Positions 926 to 14,319 of a DNA stretch of 17,016 nucleotides are shown here, piece after piece (within the stretch, counting starts at the first letter, position 1; each line of letters opens with the position of its first letter). A model generated the notes under the pieces. It ran no database searches. It was given only the letters and a program-made list of their open reading frames with translations, and had not been told where the DNA came from. The position numbers were made by a program, and so were the translations under genes. The DNA comes from Candidatus Vampirococcus lugosii (GTDB lineage Bacteria > Patescibacteriota > Gracilibacteria > Absconditabacterales > Absconditicoccaceae). The stretch covers positions 1 through 17,016 of the forward strand of contig NZ_JAEDAM010000018.1 in assembly GCF_018420025.1 (NCBI RefSeq). The letters run 5' to 3'.

Positions 926-1090
926 ATTATTTAAATTAAAACAAAATATTTATAGTTTCTTATTTGTAGAAATTTATTTTGTTATAAATATTTTAATATT
1001 GTTGGCACAAAATAAACAACATTGTATTGAAAAAAGAAATATTATTAATATAATGATATTAATTATTTTATTTTTAATACATAAAATATT

Positions 1091-1663
1091 ATGATACTCT
1101 CGGATTTTGATATAAAAAAATTATTGGAAAAATGAGATTTAATAATAGAAAGTGATTATAATGTTGAAGAACAAATATGACCTGCAAGTATAGATTTTAG
1201 ATTGTGAAATACTATTAAATATTATGATAGAACTCAATTATCTATAGTTGATCTTAAAAAAAATATACCAGTTGAAGCTATAAGAACTTTTTTTGTTCAA
1301 GATTGAGAATCTTTTATAATACATCCATGACAATTTATTTTATGAGTTACTAAAGAAAAAATATCAATTCCTGATTATTTAGTTGCAAGATGTGAATGAA
1401 GAAGTTCTTTATGAAGATTAGGTTTAATGATTCATAGCACTGCTTGATTTATTGATCCTTGATTTCAATGAACTATTACTTTGGAAATTAAAAATATAAG
1501 TGAAATACCTATCAAACTTTATCCTTGAATGAAAGTTGGTCAATTTGCTTTTGAAGTTCTAAAAACTAAAGCAGAAATTCCTTATTGACAAAGAAAATCT
1601 AGTAAATATATGAATCAAGATCAAGTACAAACAAGTATTTTTTCTATTGAAACTGATTTTTAA
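1091..1663 (+). CDS. dcd: dCTP deaminase (190 aa)
   Basis: The translation MILSDFDIKKLLEKGDLII...QIGPASIDFRLGN...HPGQFILGVT...[32 protein letters not shown] aligns along its length with E. coli Dcd (VDVRLGN, HPGE, DGRSSLARLGLMVH, IDPGW). About 13 in-frame TGA codons are present, several at invariant Gly positions. Confidence 0.93.
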
Positions 1664-1679
1664 TCAATTAAATAAATTT

Positions 1680-2102
1680 ATGAAAGTAAATATTAAAACA
1701 GTAAATTCCCAAGTTTTGGAATATAAAACTAAATGAGCAGTTTGATTTGATTTTTATTCTAGTGAAGATATTTCTTTTGAAGCTAAAGAATTTAAATTAA
1801 TAGAAACTTGAACAGTTATTCAAACTCCAAAATGATATATGTTGCAATTACAACCTAGAAGTTCTACTTTTAAAAAATTTGGTCTTATGCAAGTAAATTC
1901 TGTGTGAATTATAGATCAAGATTATTGTTGAGATGAGGATACTATTAAATTTCCATATATAAATATTACAGAAAAAAAACAATTTGTTCCAAAATGAACT
2001 AGAATATGACAGTGAGTATTTGTAAAAATAGAAAAGGCAGAATTTGTAATTGTAGATAAAATGAATTGAGAAAATAGAGGTTGATTTGGTAGTACAGGGT
2101 AA
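1680..2102 (+). CDS. dut: dUTP diphosphatase (trimeric dUTPase, 140 aa)
   Basis: All five dUTPase motifs are present: GAVGFDF, PRSS, GIIDQDYCGD, RIGQ, and the C-terminal RGGFGSTG followed by stop. The gene starts 17 nt after the dcd stop. Confidence 0.92.
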
Positions 2103-2127
2103 AATTTATTATTAATTTTTTTTGTAA

Positions 2128-2685
2128 ATGTTGCATTATATTATATGAAAAGTTTTTTCTATTGGTAATAAACAAATTATTTATAATGATTTTTTTTGAA
2201 TACAAGCAAATTATCATTGAGATAAAACTGAATGAAATTTTTTTGTAAATCCTATAATAGATTCAAATACTGGTAATATTACATATTTTGCTTTTGATGA
2301 AATAGAGCAAAAAGATTTTTTTGAAACTGTTATTAAAATTTCTTGAATATGAGCAAAAACTGCTTATTTTTTGTCTATGCTTGACAAAAAAGATGTAAAT
2401 AAAGCTATACAAGATTTTGACATAAAATATTTTCAAAAATTGCCTTGAATTGGTCCAAAAACAGCAAAAAGATTAGTTTTGGAATTAAAAAATAAAATCA
2501 AAAAATCTGATATAGCAAAACTTAATATTGATAATGATTTTTTGAATGATATAATAAAGACATTAAAACCTTATTGATTTGATTCAAATAATATAAAAAA
2601 ATTATTGGAAAAATGTGATATTGTTTTGGAAAAACAAAATATGGAAAAAATAATAAAATGGATATTTGAAAATTACAATAATTAG
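2128..2685 (+). CDS. ruvA: Holliday junction DNA helicase subunit RuvA (185 aa, compact)
   Basis: The N-terminus is MLHYIIGKV. It is followed by ISGIGAKTAYFLSML and KLPGIGPKTAKRLVLELKNK, the two helix-hairpin-helix motifs characteristic of RuvA domain II. The ATG at 2128 directly follows an in-frame TAA. The gene also contains a TGG Trp codon. Confidence 0.85.
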
Positions 2686-2713: not shown

Positions 2714-5164
2714 ATGTTTAATTCTTGAATTTTATGAATCAATTCTAGAAATTTACAATATATTAAAAAATTTAATCCAAAAAAAGTAACTCGTTTAGCA
2801 GATAATAAACAAAAAACGAAAAATTTTTTGAAGGAAAGATGAATACCAGTTCCTCAAACTTATTGAATAATTTCTAATCGTAGTCAGTTATATGATTTTG
2901 ATTTTGCTAAAATGCCTTCCAAAAATTTTGTTGTAAAACCTAATAAATGAAGTAAATGAAAATGAATTTATATTGTGAAATATATAGATGAATTAAAAAA
3001 TCAACTAAAAAATTCTTGAGAAAATATAGTAAGTAAAAAAAATAATTTTTTAAAATCATTTTTGTGATTTGATTTAAAAAGTAAATTTGATTATCATTAT
3101 AAAACATGATGAGAAATAATTAGTGATGATGTTTTAAGAAGATATTTAGTAGATATTTTGGATGGTAGATATTCTATAACTTTTGGACAAGATAAAATTT
3201 TGGTTGAAGAAAAATTAAATCCTTGAATAAATTTTAGAAAATATTGTAGACATTGATTGGCAGATATTAGAGTGATAGTTTTTAATCTAATTCCAGTTGC
3301 AGCAATGATTAGAGTTCCTACAGCAGAATCAGGTGGTAAAGCAAATATTGCTCAATGATGAGTAGGTTTGTGAGTAGAAGTTTGATCTTGAAAAGTTAAA
3401 TCAATGTATTTCAAAAAAGAAATTTTTACTAAATCTTTTCCATGAGAATATGCAGATATATATAATAAAAAAGTTCCTTTTTGGAATGATATACTTATGT
3501 ATAGTTCAGAAATTCAGTATTTTGTAAATCTTTGATATCTTGCTTTGGATTGGGTAGTTACTGATGATGGTCCTAAATTGTTGGAAATAAATGCAAGAGC
3601 ATGACTTGAAGTACAGAGTGCAAGTGTTTTAAAACTTAGAAATAGGTTGGAAAAAATTTCTGATATACATGTAAATGATCCTCAAAAATGAGTAGAAATT
3701 TCCAAAAGTATTTTTAATTCTTCCAAAAATAACTTGATTAATATGTCCAAAATATTATATCTTTCTCAAAAATGAAATTTAATTTTTGAATGAATACAAG
3801 ATAATTTTGTTAAAATTACTATTATGGTTGATATTAAAAAAGAAAAAAATTATATTTCAAAAAAGCTTTATAATAAAATTGATTCTTATAAATCATGAGA
3901 TGTAATTTTGGATATACCTGAAAATGAAATTAGATTAAAAAATTTGATATTTGAAGTAAATGATAAAATGGAAGAAAATGAAATTATTCTATGACAAGGT
4001 TCTATAAGTGAATTCTATATTAAACCTATACACAAAATAGAAACTGATATAAATATTGTAAGTTCTAGTAATATTGATGATGAAGAAATAGAAACTTTGC
4101 ACATTATAGATCAAAATATAGCAAAAATTTCAAGAAAATTAAATTTTACTAAAATATTAACTCCTACAAATTATTTAGATGAATTAGATAATTTTGTTAC
4201 TTGGAATTGAAATTATAACCCTAAATTTTCTTATAATTTTTTGGATGAAAATACTATTAATTCTTTGGAAACTGAATTATTATGAATGAAAGATAAGTAT
4301 TTTTCTAATAATTTCGGTCTCAAAAGTAATTTTTCTGAATTATTTAATGAAAAAATAGATGAATTACTTGATAGATTATATTTAATAAAAGCATATAAAT
4401 TACAGAAATATTGATATATTTTGGAATATAATGAAAAATTATTTGGTAATTTTGATAAAAAATTAGTTGAACAATCAAAAGAAAAAATATTTATGGAACC
4501 TGTACAAGATATGAATCTTTTATGAGAAAAATTAACTTTTTCTCAAGTTAAAAAAATTATTAAAAAATATCTTTATGATAAAGGTATTTCTTGAGTAAAA
4601 ATAAATACAAGTATGTGACTTAGTAGAATGGCAGTTATTAAATGAAAATATCCAGAAATAAGAATATCTTCTTATTCTTCTTTTAGAGAAAAAGAATTAT
4701 TGGCTACTTTGGCTCATGAAATTGATGTTCATTTAATTAGATTTTTAAATTGAAAAAAAACAGGTTGGGAAATATTAAAATCTTGAACATGATATTATAT
4801 AAAAGATGAAGAATGATTTGCAGTATATAATAGTTTTAATTATTTGCCAGAATGATATGAAAAAAAAGCTATATATCAAAAATATTATTTATCTTTTATA
4901 TCTTGATATTATTGATTTTCTAGATTAGTTGATATTATAAGATGAATTCAGTATAGAAGTTTGGAATGAGCTTTCAAAACTGCTTTAAGGTTAAAAAAAT
5001 GAATTCAAAATACTTGATTTGTTGATAGATGAGCTGTATATACAAAAGATAAAATATATTTAGATTGATATATGAAAGTGGATGAGCGAATAAAAAATTG
5101 ATGAAATTTTGATGAATTTAAATTTTGAAAAATTAAAATTGAAGATATTGATAAAGTTTTGTAA
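2714..5164 (+). CDS. Fusion protein (816 aa): N-terminal RimK-related ATP-grasp alpha-L-glutamate-ligase-like domain, unassigned middle region, C-terminal DUF1704 / MATCAP-like (tyrosine/phenylalanine carboxypeptidase, QEGLA family) metallopeptidase domain
   Basis: The ORF was verified open codon by codon. The N-terminus GILGINSRNLQYIKKFNPKKVTRLADNKQKTKNFLKERGIPVPQTY...FVVKPNKGSKGKGI...LADIRVIVFN...SGGKANIAQGGVGLGV...LALDWVVTDDGPKLLEINARAGLEVQ matches the TIGR02291-type ATP-grasp family (LGMNxRN start, KPxxGSxGxGI, ExN). The C-terminus ILTPTNYLDELDNF...LAHEIDVHLIRFLNG...KDEEGFAVYN...YTKDKIYLDGY carries an HExxxH motif plus the EG(L/F)A glutamate typical of DUF1704. Confidence 0.8.
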
Positions 5165-5237
5165 AATATAATTCTTTTTAATCTTTTATGTTGTATTTGT
5201 GTATAGAAATTAAATTTAAATTAATAATTAAATTATT

Positions 5238-6089
5238 ATGAATTTGTGATTAAAATATATTTTTTATTTAGTGATTTTTATGTTTTTAACATATAATTTT
5301 TGATATACTTATCAACCAGATTTGGAACGGGAATTGAAAGTAAGAAATAGTGTTGATATTATCAAAAATAATATAATAAATAAAGATTTATCAAAATTAA
5401 ATGAAATAAGAGAAAAAATTGATATAATTTCTGAAAAATTTAGTGATAATAATAAAATTACTTATTTAATAATGACACGAATACAAGTTATACAAAGTGA
5501 AATAGAAAATAGAGAATATAATAATAAATTTTTATGATATGAATTTAAAAAATCATTTATTGAAACACATGGACAAGAAATATTAACTGCCTGATATATA
5601 CCACAATTATGTTTGGAAAATTATGATATAGTAGATAAAGTTGCTAAAGAAAGAGATTTTCCTACCGCTTTAATTATTTCTATTTGGTATAGAGAAAGCT
5701 CATGTCGTAAAGCTAATCCAGCAAATTGATTTTGACCTTTTCAAATAACATCTCATTATCATAAACCTTGAGAGATAAGTTCTGATGAATTTATAACAAA
5801 AATTCATGAATTTATAGATTTTGCTGAACATAAAATGAATCATTTTTCAAATAATCCTAAATTAAAAGATATATATTGACATGAAGTATTACAAGTTAAT
5901 TATAATAATTTTGATATGAGAAGTATTAAATTATTGTCAGTATTATATAGTGGGCTTGTAACTTGAAATAGTCCTACTACATCTTATTATGCAAATGCAA
6001 ATTTAAATTCTAATTTTGAATCTACTAGAGATTGAGTTATTACATTGTTTATAAAAATATTGGAATGGGAATTACAAAATAAAATTTAA
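5238..6089 (+). CDS. Membrane-anchored lytic-transglycosylase-like (lysozyme-superfamily) protein (283 aa)
   Basis: The N-terminal hydrophobic anchor is LKYIFYLVIFMFLTY. The core ALIISIWYRESSCRKANPANGFGPFQITSHY resembles the SLT signature (catalytic E-S followed by G-x-x-Q-I). ORF-track entry 5322..5537 is an internal fragment of this gene. Confidence 0.5.
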
Positions 6090-6177: not shown

Positions 6178-6996
6178 ATGAGTATAGAAAATATATGATG
6201 AAATAAAAAAATAGAAAGTAATTTGTTATATAATAATATGTATGTATGAATGTTAAGAAATTTGTTGGAGGAAATATTTGAAAATAATAAAATAAATAAA
6301 AACGAATGAATAAAAGATTTTCAGCAGAAGTTAAATAATAAATTAAGTTTAAAATGATATAAAAATATATCAGTAGATTGAAAATTTTGATGACAAAGTT
6401 TGGAAGCTGTAAGAATTTATCATAATAAATATATGTGATGAGAAAAATTAATTGATGAAAGACAAGTAAGTATTAGTATAATAAGACAAGTTTTTTATGA
6501 TTTAATTAATATTTCAAATGATGATGAAGAAATAACGGAAATATCAAGTAAAAAATTAAATAAAAAAATAGAAACTAATTTATGATATAATAGTGAAACT
6601 GTAAGAATAAATAGAGATAGAATAGAATCTTATATAGATAAATATATACCAAATAAATGAATAAAAGAATGAGTAAAATATTTTCAATCTAAAATGAACG
6701 AATATTTATGACAGATGGGGTATATAAAAATACTAGAAGATTGAAAATTTTGATGACAAAGTTTGGAAGCTATGAAAATATATTATAATAAATATATATG
6801 AGAAAATGATATAAGTATAAAAAACATAAATAATAATACTTTTTATAGAGTATTTGAAAGCTTGGAAGATAGTTTAGTTTTGGAGAGACAAAGAATTAAA
6901 GAAAAACAAGAATTAGTAATAAAAACTAAAGAAAAAAAAACGGGAAATTTGGGAAGAGATGTATGAGATGATTTTATTTCATCAAGAGATAATTAA
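6178..6996 (+). CDS. Protein with two peptidoglycan-binding (PG_binding_1-like) domains (272 aa)
   Basis: Two copies of the motif D-G-K-F-G-G-Q-S-L-E-A-(V/M)-(R/K)-I-Y are present (VDGKFGGQSLEAVRIYHNKY and EDGKFGGQSLEAMKIYYNKY). This corresponds to the DGxFGxxTxxAVxxFQ consensus of PG-binding domain 1. An in-frame TAA lies immediately upstream of the ATG. No obvious signal peptide is present. Confidence 0.6.
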
Positions 6997-8147: not shown

Positions 8148-9065
8148 ATGATAACTAAAAATTTCCTTTATTTAATTAAGGCATCTTTTTTTCAATTTAT
8201 ATGAATAGCTATTCTTATTAGTTTTTTACTGTTTTTCTTAAATACACTTTTTGCAACATCTTTTGGAATTGAAAATTTTGGTTCTGATGTGAAAAATAAA
8301 TTATGAGTTTATTTTTATATTCAAGATATTGATGAAAATAGTGATTATATTTCCTCAAAAATAGTTAATTTAAGTTCAGAACTTGAATCTGGTTGACTTA
8401 ATGTTGAATATTATTCAAAATCTGATGCATTAGGTTTAATTGAAAATAAAATACCAGAAATAATAGCTACTTTTGAAACTTATTGAATAGAGAATCCATT
8501 ACCTCCTACATTGTATGTACTTTTTGAAAATAATGAAGAATATGAATTTATGAAAAATACGGTTGCATCTTATGAAGAAATAATAATAAATATAGAAGAT
8601 GTTATTCAATGACAAAGTTTTGATGATCAAAAAGAAAGAATAGCAAATATTATTAATCTTACCAATTTCATTGTGATTTTTTCATATTTTTTAATATCAG
8701 TGCTTTTGATAATTATTATTACTTTTTTAATGTATGTTATTAAATCAAGTTTTTATACATTTTATAATCAAATTGAAGTAGCCAAACTTCTATGAGCCCA
8801 ATATTTTCAAATAAAATTTCCTTTTTTTATTAAAATGTTTTTTATTTTATTGTTTTGAAAAGTATTTATGATGTGATATATGTATTTTTTGGCAAATTAT
8901 TTGGATACATATTTGTATAATTTATTTACATTTTCTTTTATTGAATATATAAGTGCATATTATGAAGACATTATATATATAATATCTATACAATTTGTTA
9001 TAGTTTTGTTCTTTAGTATTTTGATTTCCAATTTTTTCTTAAATAGATTGATAAAGAAAATTTAA
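8148..9065 (+). CDS. ftsX: Cell-division permease-like protein FtsX (305 aa)
   Basis: The protein has an N-terminal TM segment (FIGIAILISFLLFFLNTLF). Its extracytoplasmic domain contains LGVYFYIQD...VEYYSKSDALGLIENK...ENPLPPTLYV, the FtsX NPLP motif. Three C-terminal TM segments follow. ORF-track entry 8880..9065 is its C-terminal fragment. Confidence 0.8.
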
Positions 9066-9616
9066 TTTGTATTCGCTTTTATCATATAATTTGCTTTAAT
9101 AATTTTTTCTTTTGAAAAGTTATTAATTTCTATTTTTGTACCAATATTATTTAATATAAAATTTATTGAATAATTTTTAATATCAATATCCATAGTAAAA
9201 TTTTCATCATAATTCATTTTTTCTTTTTCTCAAATATCTTCTATAAAAAAATATTCATATTTATCATTTTCCAAATTGTATTTCCAACATTTTTTTCTTT
9301 GTCATATAAAAATAAATATTTCTTTTGGTAATAATCATTTATTAAAAAATATTTTATATAAATCTATTTTGGAGATAGTAAAAAAATCTATTTCATAATT
9401 TTGCAATAAATTAATTGTATTTAATGATAATGAACAAGTTCTTAATCCGGTAAAAGATCAAGGTCAATTTATGATAAAACATTTTTTTATTTTTTTCTCT
9501 TTAAATACTTTTACAATTTCTTTTGTGAAAGTTCTTTCAATATCTTTATTTTCCAAATATATTTTTTTTTCTTCATTTTTGATATATATTTTACTATTTG
9601 ATATATTTATTAACAT
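9062..9616 (-). CDS. tsaB: tRNA N6-threonylcarbamoyladenosine (t6A) biosynthesis protein TsaB (YeaZ-like, short form, 184 aa)
   Basis: The minus-strand translation contains CFIINGPGSFTGLRTCSLSLNTINLL, the GPGSFTGLR signature of TsaB/YeaZ. Both glycines of GPG are TGA codons. Its stop codon overlaps the ftsX stop in a convergent 4-nt overlap. Confidence 0.75.
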
Positions 9617-9638: not shown

Positions 9639-9983
9639 TTATCATGCAGAAATTGTTTGTACTATTCTTACAATACTATAACTAAATACTACTAACAAAA
9701 GTCATATAATTGAATATTTAAGTCAACTTTTACCTTTTTCAGCCAAACTTTCATTACCTGCTGAACTTACTAACATAAATCCAGAAATTACAAATGAAAT
9801 AGTAACTACTACTCATACAAACATAGTTGCTCACAAAAATATATCTTGCACAAAATTCGATACATTAGCATTCTCTGAATTTCTTATTCACAATACACCA
9901 TAAGTTTGCATTCAACATTGTCAATTTGTCAAACAATCAGCATCCGCTTCTATTCAACTAGTTAATAATATTTTATCTTCCAT
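9639..9983 (-). CDS. Small two-TM membrane protein resembling CPR 'type IV secretion system pilin' (TrbC/VirB2-like) family (114 aa)
   Basis: The C-terminal 70 aa read VQDIFLGATMFVGVVVTISFVISGFMLVSSAGNESLAEKGKSGLKYSIIGLLLVVFSYSIVRIVQTISAG. This follows the TM1 - G(F/I)xxxxSxG(D/N) - K-rich loop - IIGLxxVxxxYxIV pattern of PF18895-type pilins. No N-terminal signal peptide is seen. Confidence 0.45.
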
Positions 9984-10072
9984 TAATATTAATTTTTAAT
10001 TTTATTAAAAATAATTATTTATATAATAATAATTTATTTAAATTTTTCAAGACTGTATTATTAATTTTTATA

Positions 10073-12934
10073 TTATTTACTAGTATGTTTCCAAACTCAA
10101 TTCCAATTATCTGGAGTATTTTTTAATAAAATTTCACATCTTTCAATAAATATTTCGCAAGATTTATCATTTTTAATTTGTTTAGCATTTTTAAAATTTG
10201 ATAAAGCATTATCAAAATCTCATTTGATATATAATTCTAATCAAGTTTCAAAATAAAATATAAAATTATTTAATTCTTCTTTTTCTGTACTTGAAATAAG
10301 AGAATTAAATTTAGGAAATATTTCATATAATATTACAGATTTTTCTTTTCACTTAACTTGTATAATATCCAATTTTCTATAAATAAAATCAGATTTATTT
10401 TTTATATTATCAATTAATTCTCATGAAGCACAAATATTTGTTCCATAAAATTTATTTATTGATTCTAATCTAGCAGCAAGATTTACATTATCTCATATAA
10501 TAGTATAATTAAGTTTATATTTATCAGATCATAAATCTCAAATTACTGCTTCTCCATAATGCAATCATATTCTAGTATTAAGATTAATATCTACATTAAT
10601 TTGTTCTTTTACTAAAGCATTTATTTCTTTGATACTAATTATATTTAAAACAGCAGATTTAACTGCTAAATATGATTTATCATCATTTTCCCAAAAAGCC
10701 ATTACTGCATCTCATATATATTTATCTATAAATCATTTATTTATAGAAATATTCTCACTCATTTTTTCCAAATATATATTCAAAAAAGCCATATTTTGCT
10801 CTGGATTAAGTTTTTCTGAAATATTAGTAAATCATTCTATATCCGAAAAATACATAGAAATTTTACTTTTTTTTACTTTTTTTTCTCAAACTTTACTATA
10901 TCAATCACCAGATTCAGAAACATTTTTTCAAACATATAATCAAAATAATTTTTTGAAATTATTTTTGATAAAATTAATTTCTGTAATATAATACATAGAA
11001 GTGAAAGATAATTGAATAAATATTACAGATTTTTCTTTTCACTTAACTTGTATAATATCCAATTTTCTATAAATAAAATCAGATTTATTTTTTATATTAT
11101 CAATTAATTCTCATGAAGCACAAATATTTGTTCCATAAAATTTATTTATTGATTCTAATCTAGCAGCAAGATTTACATTATCTCATATAATAGTATAATT
11201 AAGTTTATATTTATCAGATCATAAATCTCAAATTACTGCTTCTCCATAATGCAATCATATTCTAGTATTAAGATTAATATCTACATTAATTTGTTCTTTT
11301 ACTAAAGCATTTATTTCTTTGATACTAATTATATTTAAAACAGCAGATTTAACTGCTAAATATGATTTATCATCATTTTCCCAAAAAGCCATTACTGCAT
11401 CTCATATATATTTATCTATAAATCATTTATTTATAGAAATATTCTCACTCATTTTTTCCAAATATATATTCAAAAAAGCCATATTTTGCTCTGGATTAAG
11501 TTTTTCTGAAATATTAGTAAATCATTCTATATCCGAAAAATACATAGAAATTTTACTTTTTTTTACTTTTTTTTCTCAAACTTTACTATATCAATCACCA
11601 GATTCAGAAACATTTTTTCAAACATATAATCAAAATAATTTTTTGAAATTATTTTTGATAAAATTAATTTCTGTAATATAATACATAGAAGTGAAAGATA
11701 ATTGAATAAATATTACAAAATATATAGATCATAAAGGTAAAAATATAGAAAATCAATTATTATAAAATCATAATATAGAAAAAATAATTGTTAAAATAAA
11801 AAAAAGTATTATTTCAGATATCATTAAGAAAAATATAAATTTTTGAGATCAATTAAATTTAAATACAAAAAATATTAAAGTATTAATAAGTAATATAAAA
11901 AACACAATTATTTGTATTTCTTTTGAATTAAATATATAGATAAAATCTTTATTTAAAAATGATAAAATTTGATTTGAGTGAAACACAACTCCTGCTATTT
12001 GTCATATTATACTAGGTTTTATATCTTGCAAAGCTGGATCAACTGCTCATATAATAACTATTTTATCTTTAAAATATTCTGATAAATTTTCTTTATTATG
12101 ATACACATCATACAACGATAAATAATTAAAATTATTATGATTAAGTTCATAAATTGGAGTAAACAGAAAATCTTCTCATTTCATATTCACTTTTGGAATA
12201 TTAATATTTCATATAGAATAAAAATCATTTGTAGATTTTATTTCATTTTTTACAGCTTCTCATTGAGATAAAATAGAATTTAATTTATTATATTCATAAT
12301 TTTGATAAATTTTTGCAGGAAATGAATCCAGATAAGAATCATTATTCTTTTCAAATTTCCTTGAATAAATTCATAAATCATAACTTTTAAATATTTTACT
12401 ATGAACATGTCATATATCGGCTCAATTTGATAATAAAGAATCATCAGGTTTTACAAATTCTCATGAAGAATCATTATATGTAGCACCCAAAATAATTTTA
12501 TCAGATAAATTTTCTATTAATTCTTCATCATATGAACTATAAATTTCAGTAAGCATTTTAGATCTTTCATCTTCTCCAGAAAATTTATATTTTTTTTCAA
12601 ATAAAACATCTACTCATAATACATATGGTTCATAATAAAGAATATTTTCAATAGCTTTGGCATAATATCATCTATGCAATCATTGAAATGAAATATTTTC
12701 TTTATTGAAAAATTCTTGATCTATTCAAACAATAGTTATTTTATTTTTATTTTCAAAAAAAGAATTATTTATATCAGATATAACAGTATTTCTAATTGAA
12801 ATCAATCAAGAATATATGTTAATATTTATAGTATCCAAAAAAGCTCTTCAGATAAAAAATATAGAAAATATAAATATAAAAATCTGTGATATATAAAATC
12901 AATATTTTCTATTAATTTTTTTTAAATTAAACAT
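10073..12934 (-). CDS. CHASE2 sensor-domain class III adenylate cyclase with a duplicated catalytic domain and TPR-like C-terminal tail (953 aa as assembled)
   Basis: The ORF was verified open codon by codon. It begins with an N-terminal TM segment. CHASE2 motifs follow (KITIVGIDQEFF...RGYYAKAIENI...VLGVDVLFEKK; KIVIIGAVDPALQDIKPSIIGQIAGVVFHSNQI), then three TM segments. The cyclase homology domain occurs twice: ISMYFSDIEGFTNISEKL, DKYIGDAVMAFW, RIGLHYGEAVIGDLGS, YTIIGDNVNLAARLES, VKGKEKSV. The tail reads LYEIF...GDFDNALSNFKNA...ERCEILLKNTPDNWNGVWKHTSK. Both metal-binding Asp residues, the Lys, and the Asn/Arg are present. Confidence 0.88.
10329..11717. repeat. Perfect tandem duplication, unit 690 bp (2 copies plus a 9-bp third-boundary microhomology AATATTACA)
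   Basis: By line-by-line comparison, 10329-11027 is identical to 11019-11717 at an offset of 690 (230 codons). AATATTACA occurs at 10329, 11019 and 11709. The flanks diverge immediately outside (10328 T vs 11018 A; 11028 G vs 11718 A). The identical ORF-track entries 10629..10991 and 11319..11681 are antisense by-products of this duplication. Confidence 0.95.
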
Positions 12935-12968
12935 TTTAATTTTTTATTTTAAATTTAAATTAAATAAT

Positions 12969-14309
12969 TTAATAATCATTATATTTGATAATATCAAATA
13001 TTTTATTAAGATCTATATTTCATTTTATAAAATCTTCTATATCAGAAATATTAATATTTTCCCCTAGATCTAATGCTTTATTATATTTATTTATTACATA
13101 ACTTTTTGCAATTTCCATATTATCTTGAGAAAGTAAATCTAATAAATTTAATTTAATTTTATTAAAATTTTCATTAACAGGAACTATTATCGCATCATCC
13201 AAATATTTCATATATCATTCAATTTCAGAATTTCATACTATTGCATTATATTTTTGTAAATTTTTATAATTATTTTCATATTCTTCATCAAAATATTTCA
13301 TTAAAAATAATTTAGTAGATGAAATTGAAGCAAGAATTCATTTCATTTCCAAAGTTCATGAATAATTATTTTTCACATAATTTATTATTTTATTTTTATA
13401 ATTATTTATTATATCAGAATCTTTTTGAAAAAATCTATTTATTTTTTTATAAGTTTCTTGTCATTTAATTTCTATAAACTTATTTATATCTATATTTTCA
13501 ATAGAATTCTTAATAATTTGTAATCATTCTTTTTTATTAATCAAAAATTTTTCTCATTCATTATTTACAAATTCTATCAAATGATTAAAACTAAAAACAG
13601 TGCTAGTTCAAGATTGCAAATCGTGTTCTACATATCAAGATGTTCATCTTATTACCAAAGTTCAATTTGAAGTATTAATATTAAATCAATCATCAGATAA
13701 AATAGTTCTAACTAAACTAAACCATATTTTTCAATTTTCTATATTTATACTTGTTTTTGAATTTAATAAATTTTTATTTTCTTTTATTAAATCTTGAAAT
13801 TTAATAGTAGTTTGAGGAAATATTCTTATGATAGTACCATCTCGGAGATTTATAACTACATCAGATTCTATATCTTTTGTAAGACTTGCAAATGTTATTA
13901 TATAATCTTCTTTTATATCTATATTTCAAATATTTTCATCAAATAAATTATATGTTTTTATTCTTTCTCAAGAACTTTTTATTATAATTCTAGCATTATT
14001 TTTTTCCAAAATTGATAAATCATCATTAATATTAAAATTAATATAATTTGATTGATTTGCATAAAAACTACTAACATCAACCTCTTCATCGTATACAGGA
14101 ATTATTGCAAATGTCAAAGCTACAAAATTAATTATTACTATAAATACAGACATAATAAATGCATATGTTGCTTTTATATGAGACAAAAGATATACAATAA
14201 TTCAAGATATTCATAAAAATCATAAGAATATATTTCATATTCATAAAAAAAATTTCAAAAACAACAAAAAAAATATAAAAGTTCAAAACATATATAAATA
14301 CTTATTCAT
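12969..14309 (-). CDS. Membrane-anchored FecR-domain protein (446 aa), likely partner of the downstream CHASE2 cyclase
   Basis: The ORF was verified open. The N-terminal hydrophobic region contains two TM-like segments. The central region GKIWFSLVRTILSDDGFNINTSNGTLVIRGTSGYVEHD matches the FecR-domain core (f.V.Tp.a.lgVRGT.f.v). The gene ends 35 nt upstream of the cyclase start. An alternative start is the Met at 14291. Confidence 0.6.
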
Positions 14310-14319
14310 TATAATTTAA

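Follow-up and report, generated by a model that had tools for sequence, protein, structure and literature searches.

RimK adds glutamate to the C-terminus of the ribosomal protein RpsF, which in Escherichia coli ends in ...GDSEE, and RimB trims the resulting tail as well as binding and stimulating RimK; a natural RimB–RimK hybrid also exists (PMC11957791). The RloABC system of Pseudomonas aeruginosa combines RloC, a cytoplasmic ATP-grasp enzyme, with RloB, an inactive transglutaminase carrying a seven-transmembrane (7TM) domain, and RloA, a secreted retropepsin-like protease that cleaves polyglutamate; loss of rloB or rloC rescues a triple rloA protease mutant, the Rlo systems of Pseudomonas influence how its cells tolerate antibiotics, form biofilms and are shaped, and RloB is 96% proteobacterial (PMC11957051). 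The MATCAP/TMCP enzymes, finally, are experimentally established deglutamylases, which shorten polyglutamate chains and also detyrosinate tubulin (PMC10499314). The gene described here lies in a window of 17,016 nucleotides (nt), a complete 17-kb contig of Candidatus Vampirococcus lugosii, and encodes on one polypeptide an ATP-grasp ligase of the RimK/RloC type, an apparently decayed RimB/RloA-like domain and a MATCAP-type metallocarboxypeptidase.

The fusion of an amino-acid-adding to an amino-acid-removing enzyme is confirmed as genuine. Its function is read here, with evenly balanced confidence, as the setting of a glutamate tail, which the ligase would extend and the MATCAP domain would trim with the assistance of the dead middle domain, and for which the best candidate acceptor is a C-terminal Glu-Glu (-EE) tail on a 7TM partner protein. 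We hold this reading far more firmly at the level of the domains than for the substrate.

Architecture and conservation of the fusion protein

The gene (Table 1) contains 49 in-frame TGA codons and neither TAA nor TAG until its terminal TAA. Translation with table 11 gave fragments only, whereas code 25 yielded one protein of 816 amino acids (aa), for which NCBI has an identical entry from Ca. Vampirococcus lugosii under the name 'tyrosine/phenylalanine carboxypeptidase domain-containing protein'. When aligned to 82 standard-code homologues, the 44 evaluable TGA columns held 59% Gly (background 7.4%) and 0% Trp, and Gly was the majority residue at 30 of them, which bears out the code-25 reading of the preliminary description. 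Code 4 (UGA = Trp) was ruled out, since the standard-code homologues never carry Trp at these columns. The TGA-encoded residues include the invariant Gly positions G215, G297, G701 and G785, and three TGA-encoded Gly align with Gly of human MATCAP. The genome paper of V. lugosii states that UGA encodes glycine in this organism and is without mention of the fusion gene (PMC8080830).

The same full-length architecture was shared by more than 120 protein clusters at 90% identity, which are 43–68% identical, and when 1.84 billion cluster representatives were searched exhaustively, fusion-length proteins turned up down to 27–30% identity, of which those tested carry both Pfam domains. A scan of species-representative genomes, queried with a six-sequence alignment, found the fusion in at least 160 species genomes, so the two enzymes are indeed one protein, as had been proposed from the single 816-aa frame. 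Among the best 80 of these genomes, the taxon labels (those of the records of metagenome-assembled genomes, MAGs) were mostly Peregrinibacteria/Peribacteria, followed by Gracilibacteria, 'Patescibacteria group' and some Saccharibacteria, with two Parcubacteria and one Kiritimatiellales MAG as minor entries; the hosts of the fusion include Peregrinibacteria, Peribacteria and Gracilibacteria, as well as Absconditabacteria. In total, 88 loci were examined, with a few near-duplicates among them (L002 and L008 encode the same protein), and 82 of them use the standard code. The fusion is old and widespread within one candidate phyla radiation (CPR) branch.

The N-terminal module matched PF14397 (ATPgrasp_ST) over residues 12–315 with E = 6e-46 (157.3 bits, above the cut-off of 31.4), covering profile positions 2–276 of 278. 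It also matched TIGR02291 (rimK_rel_E_lig), from which NCBI derives the name 'alpha-L-glutamate ligase-like protein', with E = 1.9e-57, though at 194.7 bits this lies below the equivalog cut-off of 314.2, and module 1 is best regarded as a homologue, not an equivalog, of that model. The RimK family model TIGR00768 was matched in its N-terminal part only (46.6 bits against a cut-off of 143.4), and a Pfam TTL match of the fusion (E = 0.002) fell below its cut-off. Proteins annotated 'alpha-L-glutamate ligase-like protein' were 29–30% identical to module 1 over 97–99% of the domain, one of them being the ligase of an rloABC-type operon in Legionella. With the ligase half of the AlphaFold2 (AF2) model of the fusion (predicted local distance difference test score, pLDDT, 84.2), Foldseek returned RimK as the best match, followed by ArgX/LysX, Ddl, PsnB and CphA1. 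The family given in the preliminary description, RimK-related ATP-grasp, thus holds, but the domain does not end after its ~310 aa and reaches to about residue 335. The ATP-grasp catalytic residues K75, D279, E291 and N293 are all present, and the ligase residues invariant in all 88 fusions comprise E165, D184, R186, R200, N211, D279, E291, N293 and R295. From general knowledge of ATP-grasp enzymes, we take K75 to bind ATP, and D279, E291 and N293 presumably bind Mg-ATP. No signal peptide is evident in the fusion protein, which is therefore presumably cytoplasmic.

The C-terminal module matched PF08014 (MATCAP) at residues 494–705 with E = 1e-16 (61.3 bits, above the cut-off of 27); this single-stretch match in an AT-rich sequence covers profile positions 3–216 of 365, and distant fusions match the full profile. 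TIGR02421 (QEGLA) was matched with E = 1e-21, at 77.4 bits against an equivalog cut-off of 338.65. A phmmer comparison of module 3 with human MATCAP (7Z5G) gave E = 2e-10 and paired HEIDVH with HEIGTH, DEEGFA with TEEGLA, KKGIQNT with KRGQTDT and KDKIYLDG with KDQVYLDG, and 7Z5G was also the top structural match in Foldseek (E = 8e-11, target-normalised TM-score 0.63, about 20% identity). The peptidase residues H668, E669, H673, E700 and K761, and also G701, are invariant in all 88 fusions, with E700 as the presumed third zinc ligand. The earlier assignment of the C-terminal ~330 aa to DUF1704 was therefore right as to family and too short, the module spanning ~360 aa from about residue 456; the HEIDVH motif and the downstream EEG are intact, as had been noted. 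Neither the window nor the orthologous loci showed any tubulin context, and module 3 appears to work like the MATCAP family without being the tubulin enzyme.

The middle region, previously said to match nothing recognisable, proved to be a degenerate RimB/RloA-like domain, and the protein therefore has three modules, not two. Residues 346–441 form a compact beta-rich domain in the AF2 model, and a separate AF2 model of the module reached a pLDDT of 89. When a family-wide profile of 77 middle domains, all of them devoid of D-[TS]-G, was compared by HHalign to the RimB-like domains of 12 MATCAP-free proteins, the two families aligned end to end over 94 columns (99.3%, E = 1.1e-20), and an iterated hidden Markov model reached PF05618 segments. 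Narrower searches were less telling: the 28 close-clade middle domains gave no direct PF05618 match at E ≤ 10, with only scattered chance hits, a clade-only HHalign reached 38% probability over 46 columns, and the close-clade profile gave only chance-level matches against PDB sequences (dynein Tctex, E = 0.08). Nearly all top Foldseek matches of the module were retropepsin-like, with modest scores (E = 4e-3 to 0.1, TM-score about 0.45), and included Rickettsia APRc, the RVP domains of Ddi1, retroviral proteases and pepsin lobes. Certain relatives carry a Pfam-detected PF05618 domain ('RimB-like', formerly 'Zn_protease') directly after the same ATP-grasp domain, and one protein, P0239, has ATP-grasp, Pfam-detected PF05618 and MATCAP in the same order as the V. 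lugosii fusion.

The catalytic motif of this domain is intact (DTGA/DTGE) in only 6 of the 85 aligned fusions, at loci L003 and L009–L013, which form one clade; in the remaining fusions the position of the motif Asp is occupied by D, N, E, A, S, T or R. An insertion of about 50 residues in canonical RimB-like members is absent from module 2. We conclude from these alignments that module 2 has in all likelihood retained the fold and lost the aspartic-protease chemistry, and it is probably kept for acidic-tail binding, dimerisation or ligase activation. Both catalytic centres of the flanking modules are invariant, and both activities are therefore under selection, whereas the retropepsin motif drifts freely.

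Table 1. Positions of the fusion gene, its modules and its motifs within the window
Feature	Position (nt)	Strand	Basis or remark
Whole gene	2714..5164	+	816 codons plus TAA, UGA = Gly (code 25)
Module 1, RimK/RloC-type ATP-grasp amino-acid ligase, aa 1–335	2714..3718	+	PF14397, TIGR02291, Foldseek
K75, conserved Lys of the VVKPN strand	2936..2938	+	K in 87 of 88 fusions, one gap
D279...E291-x-N293 acidic/Asn triad, then R295 and G297	3548..3592	+	Invariant in 88 of 88 fusions
Flexible linker, aa 336–345	3719..3748	+	pLDDT <50 at residues 339–344
Module 2, RimB/RloA-like (PF05618) domain, probably of retropepsin fold, aa 346–441	3749..4036	+	HHalign, iterated hidden Markov model, AF2, Foldseek
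D373-I-K-K, in place of the retropepsin catalytic D-T/S-G-A motif	3830..3841	+	Motif Gly gone
IILGQGSISEFYIKPIHK, counterpart of the RimB-like C-terminal motif IIGrrDLkxFLIDPxK	3983..4036	+	HHalign alignment
Module 3, MATCAP/DUF1704-type zinc metallocarboxypeptidase with N-terminal helical part, aa 456–816	4079..5161	+	PF08014, phmmer, Foldseek
H668-E-I-D-V-H673, HExxxH zinc-binding/catalytic motif	4715..4732	+	Aligns with HEIGTH of human MATCAP
E699-E700-G701 ('QEGLA' motif)	4808..4816	+	Aligns with EEG of human MATCAP; G701 codon TGA

The 7TM partner and its C-terminal tail

A gene for a PF14402 (7TM_transglut) protein lies directly upstream of the fusion, on the same strand, in 75 of the 88 loci and nearby in 3 more. 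The same 7TM neighbour was found at the evolutionary intermediates P0226 and P0239 (two-domain proteins of ATP-grasp plus RimB-like domain, and three-domain forms with an intact DTGA). On a Legionella plasmid, an unfused operon encodes a small DTGA-bearing PF05618-type protein, an 'inactive transglutaminase family protein'/7TM protein and the ligase, which by gene content corresponds to the rloABC arrangement of P. aeruginosa. Taken together, the fusion gene appears to belong to an Rlo-like system with a conserved 7TM_transglut partner. This partner and other components of the system are absent from the 17-kb window, and the 7TM protein of V. lugosii (P0373, 524 aa, E = 4e-94) is encoded on another contig, 9.3 kb long.

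The C-terminus of the partner is almost uniform, as all 116 SR1-type 7TM homologues of at least 400 aa, P0373 included, end in -EE. Among the partner genes of the examined loci, 67 of 77 encode this terminus, with 2–5 encoded terminal Glu, compared to 11 of 1071 (1.0%) of the other open reading frames (ORFs) of at least 150 aa at the same loci. P0373 itself ends in ...LLKNKGEEE (C-terminal stretch ...RFMPLLKNKGEEE). According to a simple hydropathy scan and the Pfam 7TM assignment, it has a signal peptide, an ectodomain of ~280 aa and a transmembrane block at residues 305–499; with a signal peptide, an ectodomain and seven transmembrane helices, the tail is predicted to be cytoplasmic, i.e. 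to lie in the compartment expected for the fusion enzyme. At each of the six loci where DTG is intact, the 7TM tail is basic and does not end in -EE, so that intact DTG and -EE never occur together; of the four further exceptions, three do have Glu at the end. The RloB-like proteins of Legionella and Aeromonas, where the ligase gene is separate, are likewise without -EE, and Legionella also has a separate gene for an intact DTGA protease.

Other genes at these loci vary. In the window (1085–2685) and at L004 and L093, genes for a dCTP deaminase, a dUTPase and a RuvA-like protein precede the fusion, and L094 keeps the RuvA-like gene only; in distant standard-code relatives the order is YebC, RuvC, the 7TM gene and then the fusion. 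In the Vampirococcus subclade the linkage to Holliday-junction genes persists, while the 7TM gene has left the neighbourhood. The fusion is directly followed in the window by a gene for a protein of 283 aa that has a hydrophobic segment at its N-terminus and matches nothing in Pfam (5232–6089, +) and one for a 272-aa protein with two peptidoglycan-binding-type repeats (PG_binding_3/1; 6178–6996, +), neither of which is conserved beside orthologues of the fusion. Accessory ligases occur at some loci (RimK-like at about 11 of 88, CphA-G-like at 4 and M-like at 2), none of them in the window. At L001 (11346–12596) and L003 (12278–13453) there are stand-alone genes for a cyanophycin-synthetase-like M domain (E = 3e-44) and G domain (E = 7e-38), which hints at a split cyanophycin-like ligase set. 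At L005 (9809–12208, −), a stand-alone MATCAP paralogue (482 aa, HEIETH, EEGLA) and a RimK-family gene directly follow the fusion on the opposite strand, and fused and unfused copies of the system can therefore coexist.

Proposed function and alternative readings

In the mechanism that we propose, module 1 would attach amino acids to a C-terminal carboxylate, alpha-linked L-glutamate being the most probable case, and module 3 would cut residues off the C-terminal end of acidic tails of this kind. With ligase and peptidase on one polypeptide, tail length would be set by a single writer/eraser chain. Module 2 may be a binding site for the acidic tail, hold a dimer together or, in the way that RimB acts on RimK, stimulate the ligase, and the most likely acceptor would be the predicted cytoplasmic -EE(E) tail of the 7TM_transglut protein. 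What the domains are, that the active sites of the outer two are conserved, that the middle site has decayed, the linkage of the genes and the -EE tail are observations; that glutamate is the residue added, that the tail is the substrate and what module 2 does, we infer from sequences, structure predictions, gene neighbourhoods and the literature on related proteins. The pairing of opposing add and remove activities, as put forward in the preliminary description, is reasonable in its logic, since MATCAP/TMCP enzymes are deglutamylases (PMC10499314) and RimK-type ligases add Glu; that both halves share a single substrate goes a step further and is presumed here.

Several observations weigh against this proposal. 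The fusion protein misses the equivalog cut-offs of both TIGR02291 and TIGR02421, and the characterised RimBK hybrid showed no RpsF glutamylation in vitro (PMC11957791). The three closest relatives, in which a RuvA-like gene is followed by the fusion as in the window, have no 7TM gene within 8–10 kb upstream (downstream flanks of 1.4–12 kb); since the 7TM gene is non-adjacent in the Vampirococcus subclade, the coupling there amounts to genomic co-occurrence only. The loci with an intact DTG form one clade, and the anti-correlation between DTG and -EE therefore represents few independent events. The -EE tail could serve for docking and not as an acceptor, a single chain with both writer and eraser would, if unregulated, waste ATP by futile cycling, and the extra RimK-like and cyanophycin-synthetase-like ligases at some loci point to free polymer synthesis. 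Both activities of the fusion, as well as the glutamate specificity of its ligase, are putative. As a tentative extension of the proposal, the enzyme may run a 'tubulin-code-like' cycle on the 7TM tail in the Gracilibacteria/Absconditabacteria/Peregrinibacteria branch, tuning an envelope or cell-contact function, in which case the pairing would predate, and perhaps would have seeded, the eukaryotic combination of TTL/TTLL with MATCAP.

The alternative that survives best, though we consider it rather unlikely, is a machine for a free polymer, in which the ligase would make poly-alpha-glutamate or a cyanophycin-like polymer, the MATCAP domain would set its length or its primers and the 7TM protein would export or anchor it, leaving the -EE tail at most as a primer or docking site. 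RimK does make free poly-alpha-Glu and is stimulated in this by RimB (PMC11957791), and the rescue of rloA mutants by loss of rloB or rloC suggests a product that needs degradation (PMC11957051). The RimK-family and the CphA M-like and G-like ligases at some loci fit such a polymer, as do the CphA1 structures among the Foldseek matches, and cyanophycin synthetase is described as having a primer-making hydrolytic site (PMC9262961). These accessory ligases are, however, sporadic and missing from the window, the fusion lacks a signal peptide, and the near-universal -EE terminus of the 7TM protein would be unexplained by a free polymer alone. Moreover, we know of no export function for PF14402.

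A RimK-like modification of the ribosome, in which RpsF or another soluble acidic C-terminus would be glutamylated and deglutamylated and the link to the 7TM protein would be regulatory, is improbable. RimK is the best solved-structure match of module 1 and, together with RimB, sets a precedent, but the ligase is RloC-type by its profile matches (PF14397/TIGR02291, with TIGR00768 far below its cut-off), its conserved neighbour is a membrane protein and not a ribosomal gene, and separate RimK-family genes exist at some of the same loci.

Peptidoglycan stem peptides, suggested as substrates in the preliminary description, found little support. On this account, which we hold to be very improbable, a murein precursor in the cytoplasm would lose a terminal residue to the carboxypeptidase and receive another from the ligase. 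The protein with peptidoglycan-binding repeats downstream in the window, the PBP1A, YkuD and M23 peptidase genes near some orthologues and the envelope and cell-shape phenotypes of rlo mutants (PMC11957051) would agree with it. It is ranked low because the peptidoglycan-related neighbours are not conserved across loci; in addition, the ligase belongs to the RimK/RloC clade and not to the Ddl or Mur type (Ddl matches being weak), MATCAP-family enzymes act on alpha-linked protein C-termini (PMC10499314), and the 7TM partner with its -EE tail would be unexplained. Lastly, the notion of an artefact or a decaying gene, i.e. of two separate genes that an error of assembly or a frameshift has joined, or of one dead active site, deserves practically no credence and is refuted, because the 49 stops that break the ORF under the standard code are all TGA in columns that align to Gly in standard-code homologues, the same continuous architecture recurs in the protein clusters and species genomes counted above, mostly at standard-code loci, and both catalytic centres are invariant.

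Elsewhere in the window, a 957-aa ORF for a membrane cyclase-like protein (10073–12943, −) contains a near-perfect tandem duplication with a period of 690 nt, its repeats at 10318–10617 and 11008–11307 sharing a 300-nt core at 98–100% identity. The duplicated ~230 aa were called by eye as a transmembrane segment plus a nucleotide-cyclase-like region, and the duplication could be a recent event or an assembly artefact. The gene is flanked by one for a small protein with a T4SS-pilin-like domain (9639–9995, −; E = 7e-7) and, on its other side, by one for a 446-aa membrane protein with a FecR-like domain (12969–14315, −). Near the start of the window, ORF 11–874 encodes a protein with an FKBP-type prolyl isomerase domain and what looks like a lipoprotein signal sequence, and it has a 30-nt tandem repeat in its N-terminal part (137–387, +; 8.4 copies, 97% matches, acidic 'EEEGQDEVST' units). 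The GC skew changes sign at ~8500–9100, with a cumulative maximum near 8.5–9 kb, coinciding with a switch of gene orientation from + to − (convergent genes end at 9065 and 9062); this could mark a terminus-like region or reflect a purine bias of the coding strand.

Comparison with known systems

A literature search found, among the papers listed, no published description of the ATP-grasp plus DUF1704/MATCAP architecture, and the names in the databases are automatic only ('tyrosine/phenylalanine carboxypeptidase domain-containing protein', 'DUF1704 domain-containing protein'). Module 3 belongs to the same PF08014 family as the proteobacterial QEGLA proteins (TIGR02421, 'flavohemoglobin expression-modulating QEGLA motif protein'), to which it is 24–26% identical over 97% of its length. 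Unlike the fusion, the QEGLA proteins stand alone; the one inspected, on an Aminobacter plasmid, is encoded by a gene of 1869 nt (about 622 aa) and adjoins an ATP-grasp ligase. The earlier statement that stand-alone MATCAP-like genes neighbour such ligases is thus upheld at the one locus inspected, where the genes are annotated as N-formylglutamate amidohydrolase, QEGLA protein and 'glutathione synthetase', the ligase being GshB-like. A precedent for a chain that combines ligase and hydrolase is CphA1, which is described as having an ATP-grasp G domain, a Mur-ligase-like M domain and a primer-generating hydrolytic site (PMC9262961). Its hydrolytic domain is unrelated to module 3 and the fusion has no M domain, so the likeness is confined to the ATP-grasp fold.

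TTL and TTLL, the enzymes that oppose MATCAP and TMCP, are also ATP-grasp ligases. Compared to this tubulin cycle, the fusion carries both activities on one chain and has no microtubule-binding context, and its ligase belongs to the RimK/RloC clade rather than the TTL family. With MATCAP and TMCP1-2 (KIAA0895L/KIAA0895), module 3 has in common the peptidase fold and the HExxxH...E site, in a family that trims acidic C-terminal tails and shortens poly-Glu chains (PMC10499314).

In the RimK/RimB pair and the RimBK hybrid, an ATP-grasp Glu ligase is likewise paired or fused with a retropepsin-like protease acting on the same poly-Glu tail, the protease domain regulates the ligase and the acceptor ends in Glu-Glu, as does the 7TM tail, which in this respect resembles RpsF. 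The fusion differs from them in several ways: the domain order of the hybrid is reversed, with the ligase first and the RimB-like domain second; that domain is predicted to be inactive and the ligase is not RimK proper; hydrolysis would presumably be carried out by a zinc exopeptidase instead of an aspartic endopeptidase; and the proposed acceptor is a membrane protein and not RpsF.

If the proposal is correct, it would provide the first concrete substrate hypothesis, a defined C-terminal peptide, for Rlo/TIGR02291 ATP-grasp systems and the first functional context for bacterial MATCAP/DUF1704 proteins, and it would mean that a tail ligase of the ATP-grasp kind and a tail peptidase of the MATCAP kind, a pair familiar from the eukaryotic tubulin code, occur together in bacteria too, on one polypeptide. 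It would also describe a stepwise domain replacement, in which the aspartic endopeptidase decayed after the gain of the zinc exopeptidase, in correlation with the -EE tail on the partner. That so small a genome, belonging to an obligate epibiotic predator whose cell surface is elaborate, retains the system would then suggest a role in the CPR envelope.

The RloABC system shares with the fusion loci a PF14397/TIGR02291-type ATP-grasp enzyme, an adjoining PF14402 7TM protein and a PF05618 RimB-like domain. In the fusion, however, the protease domain sits behind the ligase, without a signal peptide and without DTG, whereas RloA is secreted and active, and the MATCAP-type metallocarboxypeptidase is an addition. 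The ectodomain of the fusion-linked 7TM protein was not detected as a transglutaminase, showing PKD or Y_Y_Y matches instead, and its C-terminus is -EE, unlike the RloB-like tails of Legionella and Aeromonas. The lineage, too, is different, the fusion being found in the CPR. What is new is thus a three-module enzyme of CPR lineages, composed of a ligase, a seemingly dead protease and a metallocarboxypeptidase and accompanied by an -EE-tailed 7TM partner, which may be regarded as a variant of both RimK/RimB and RloABC.

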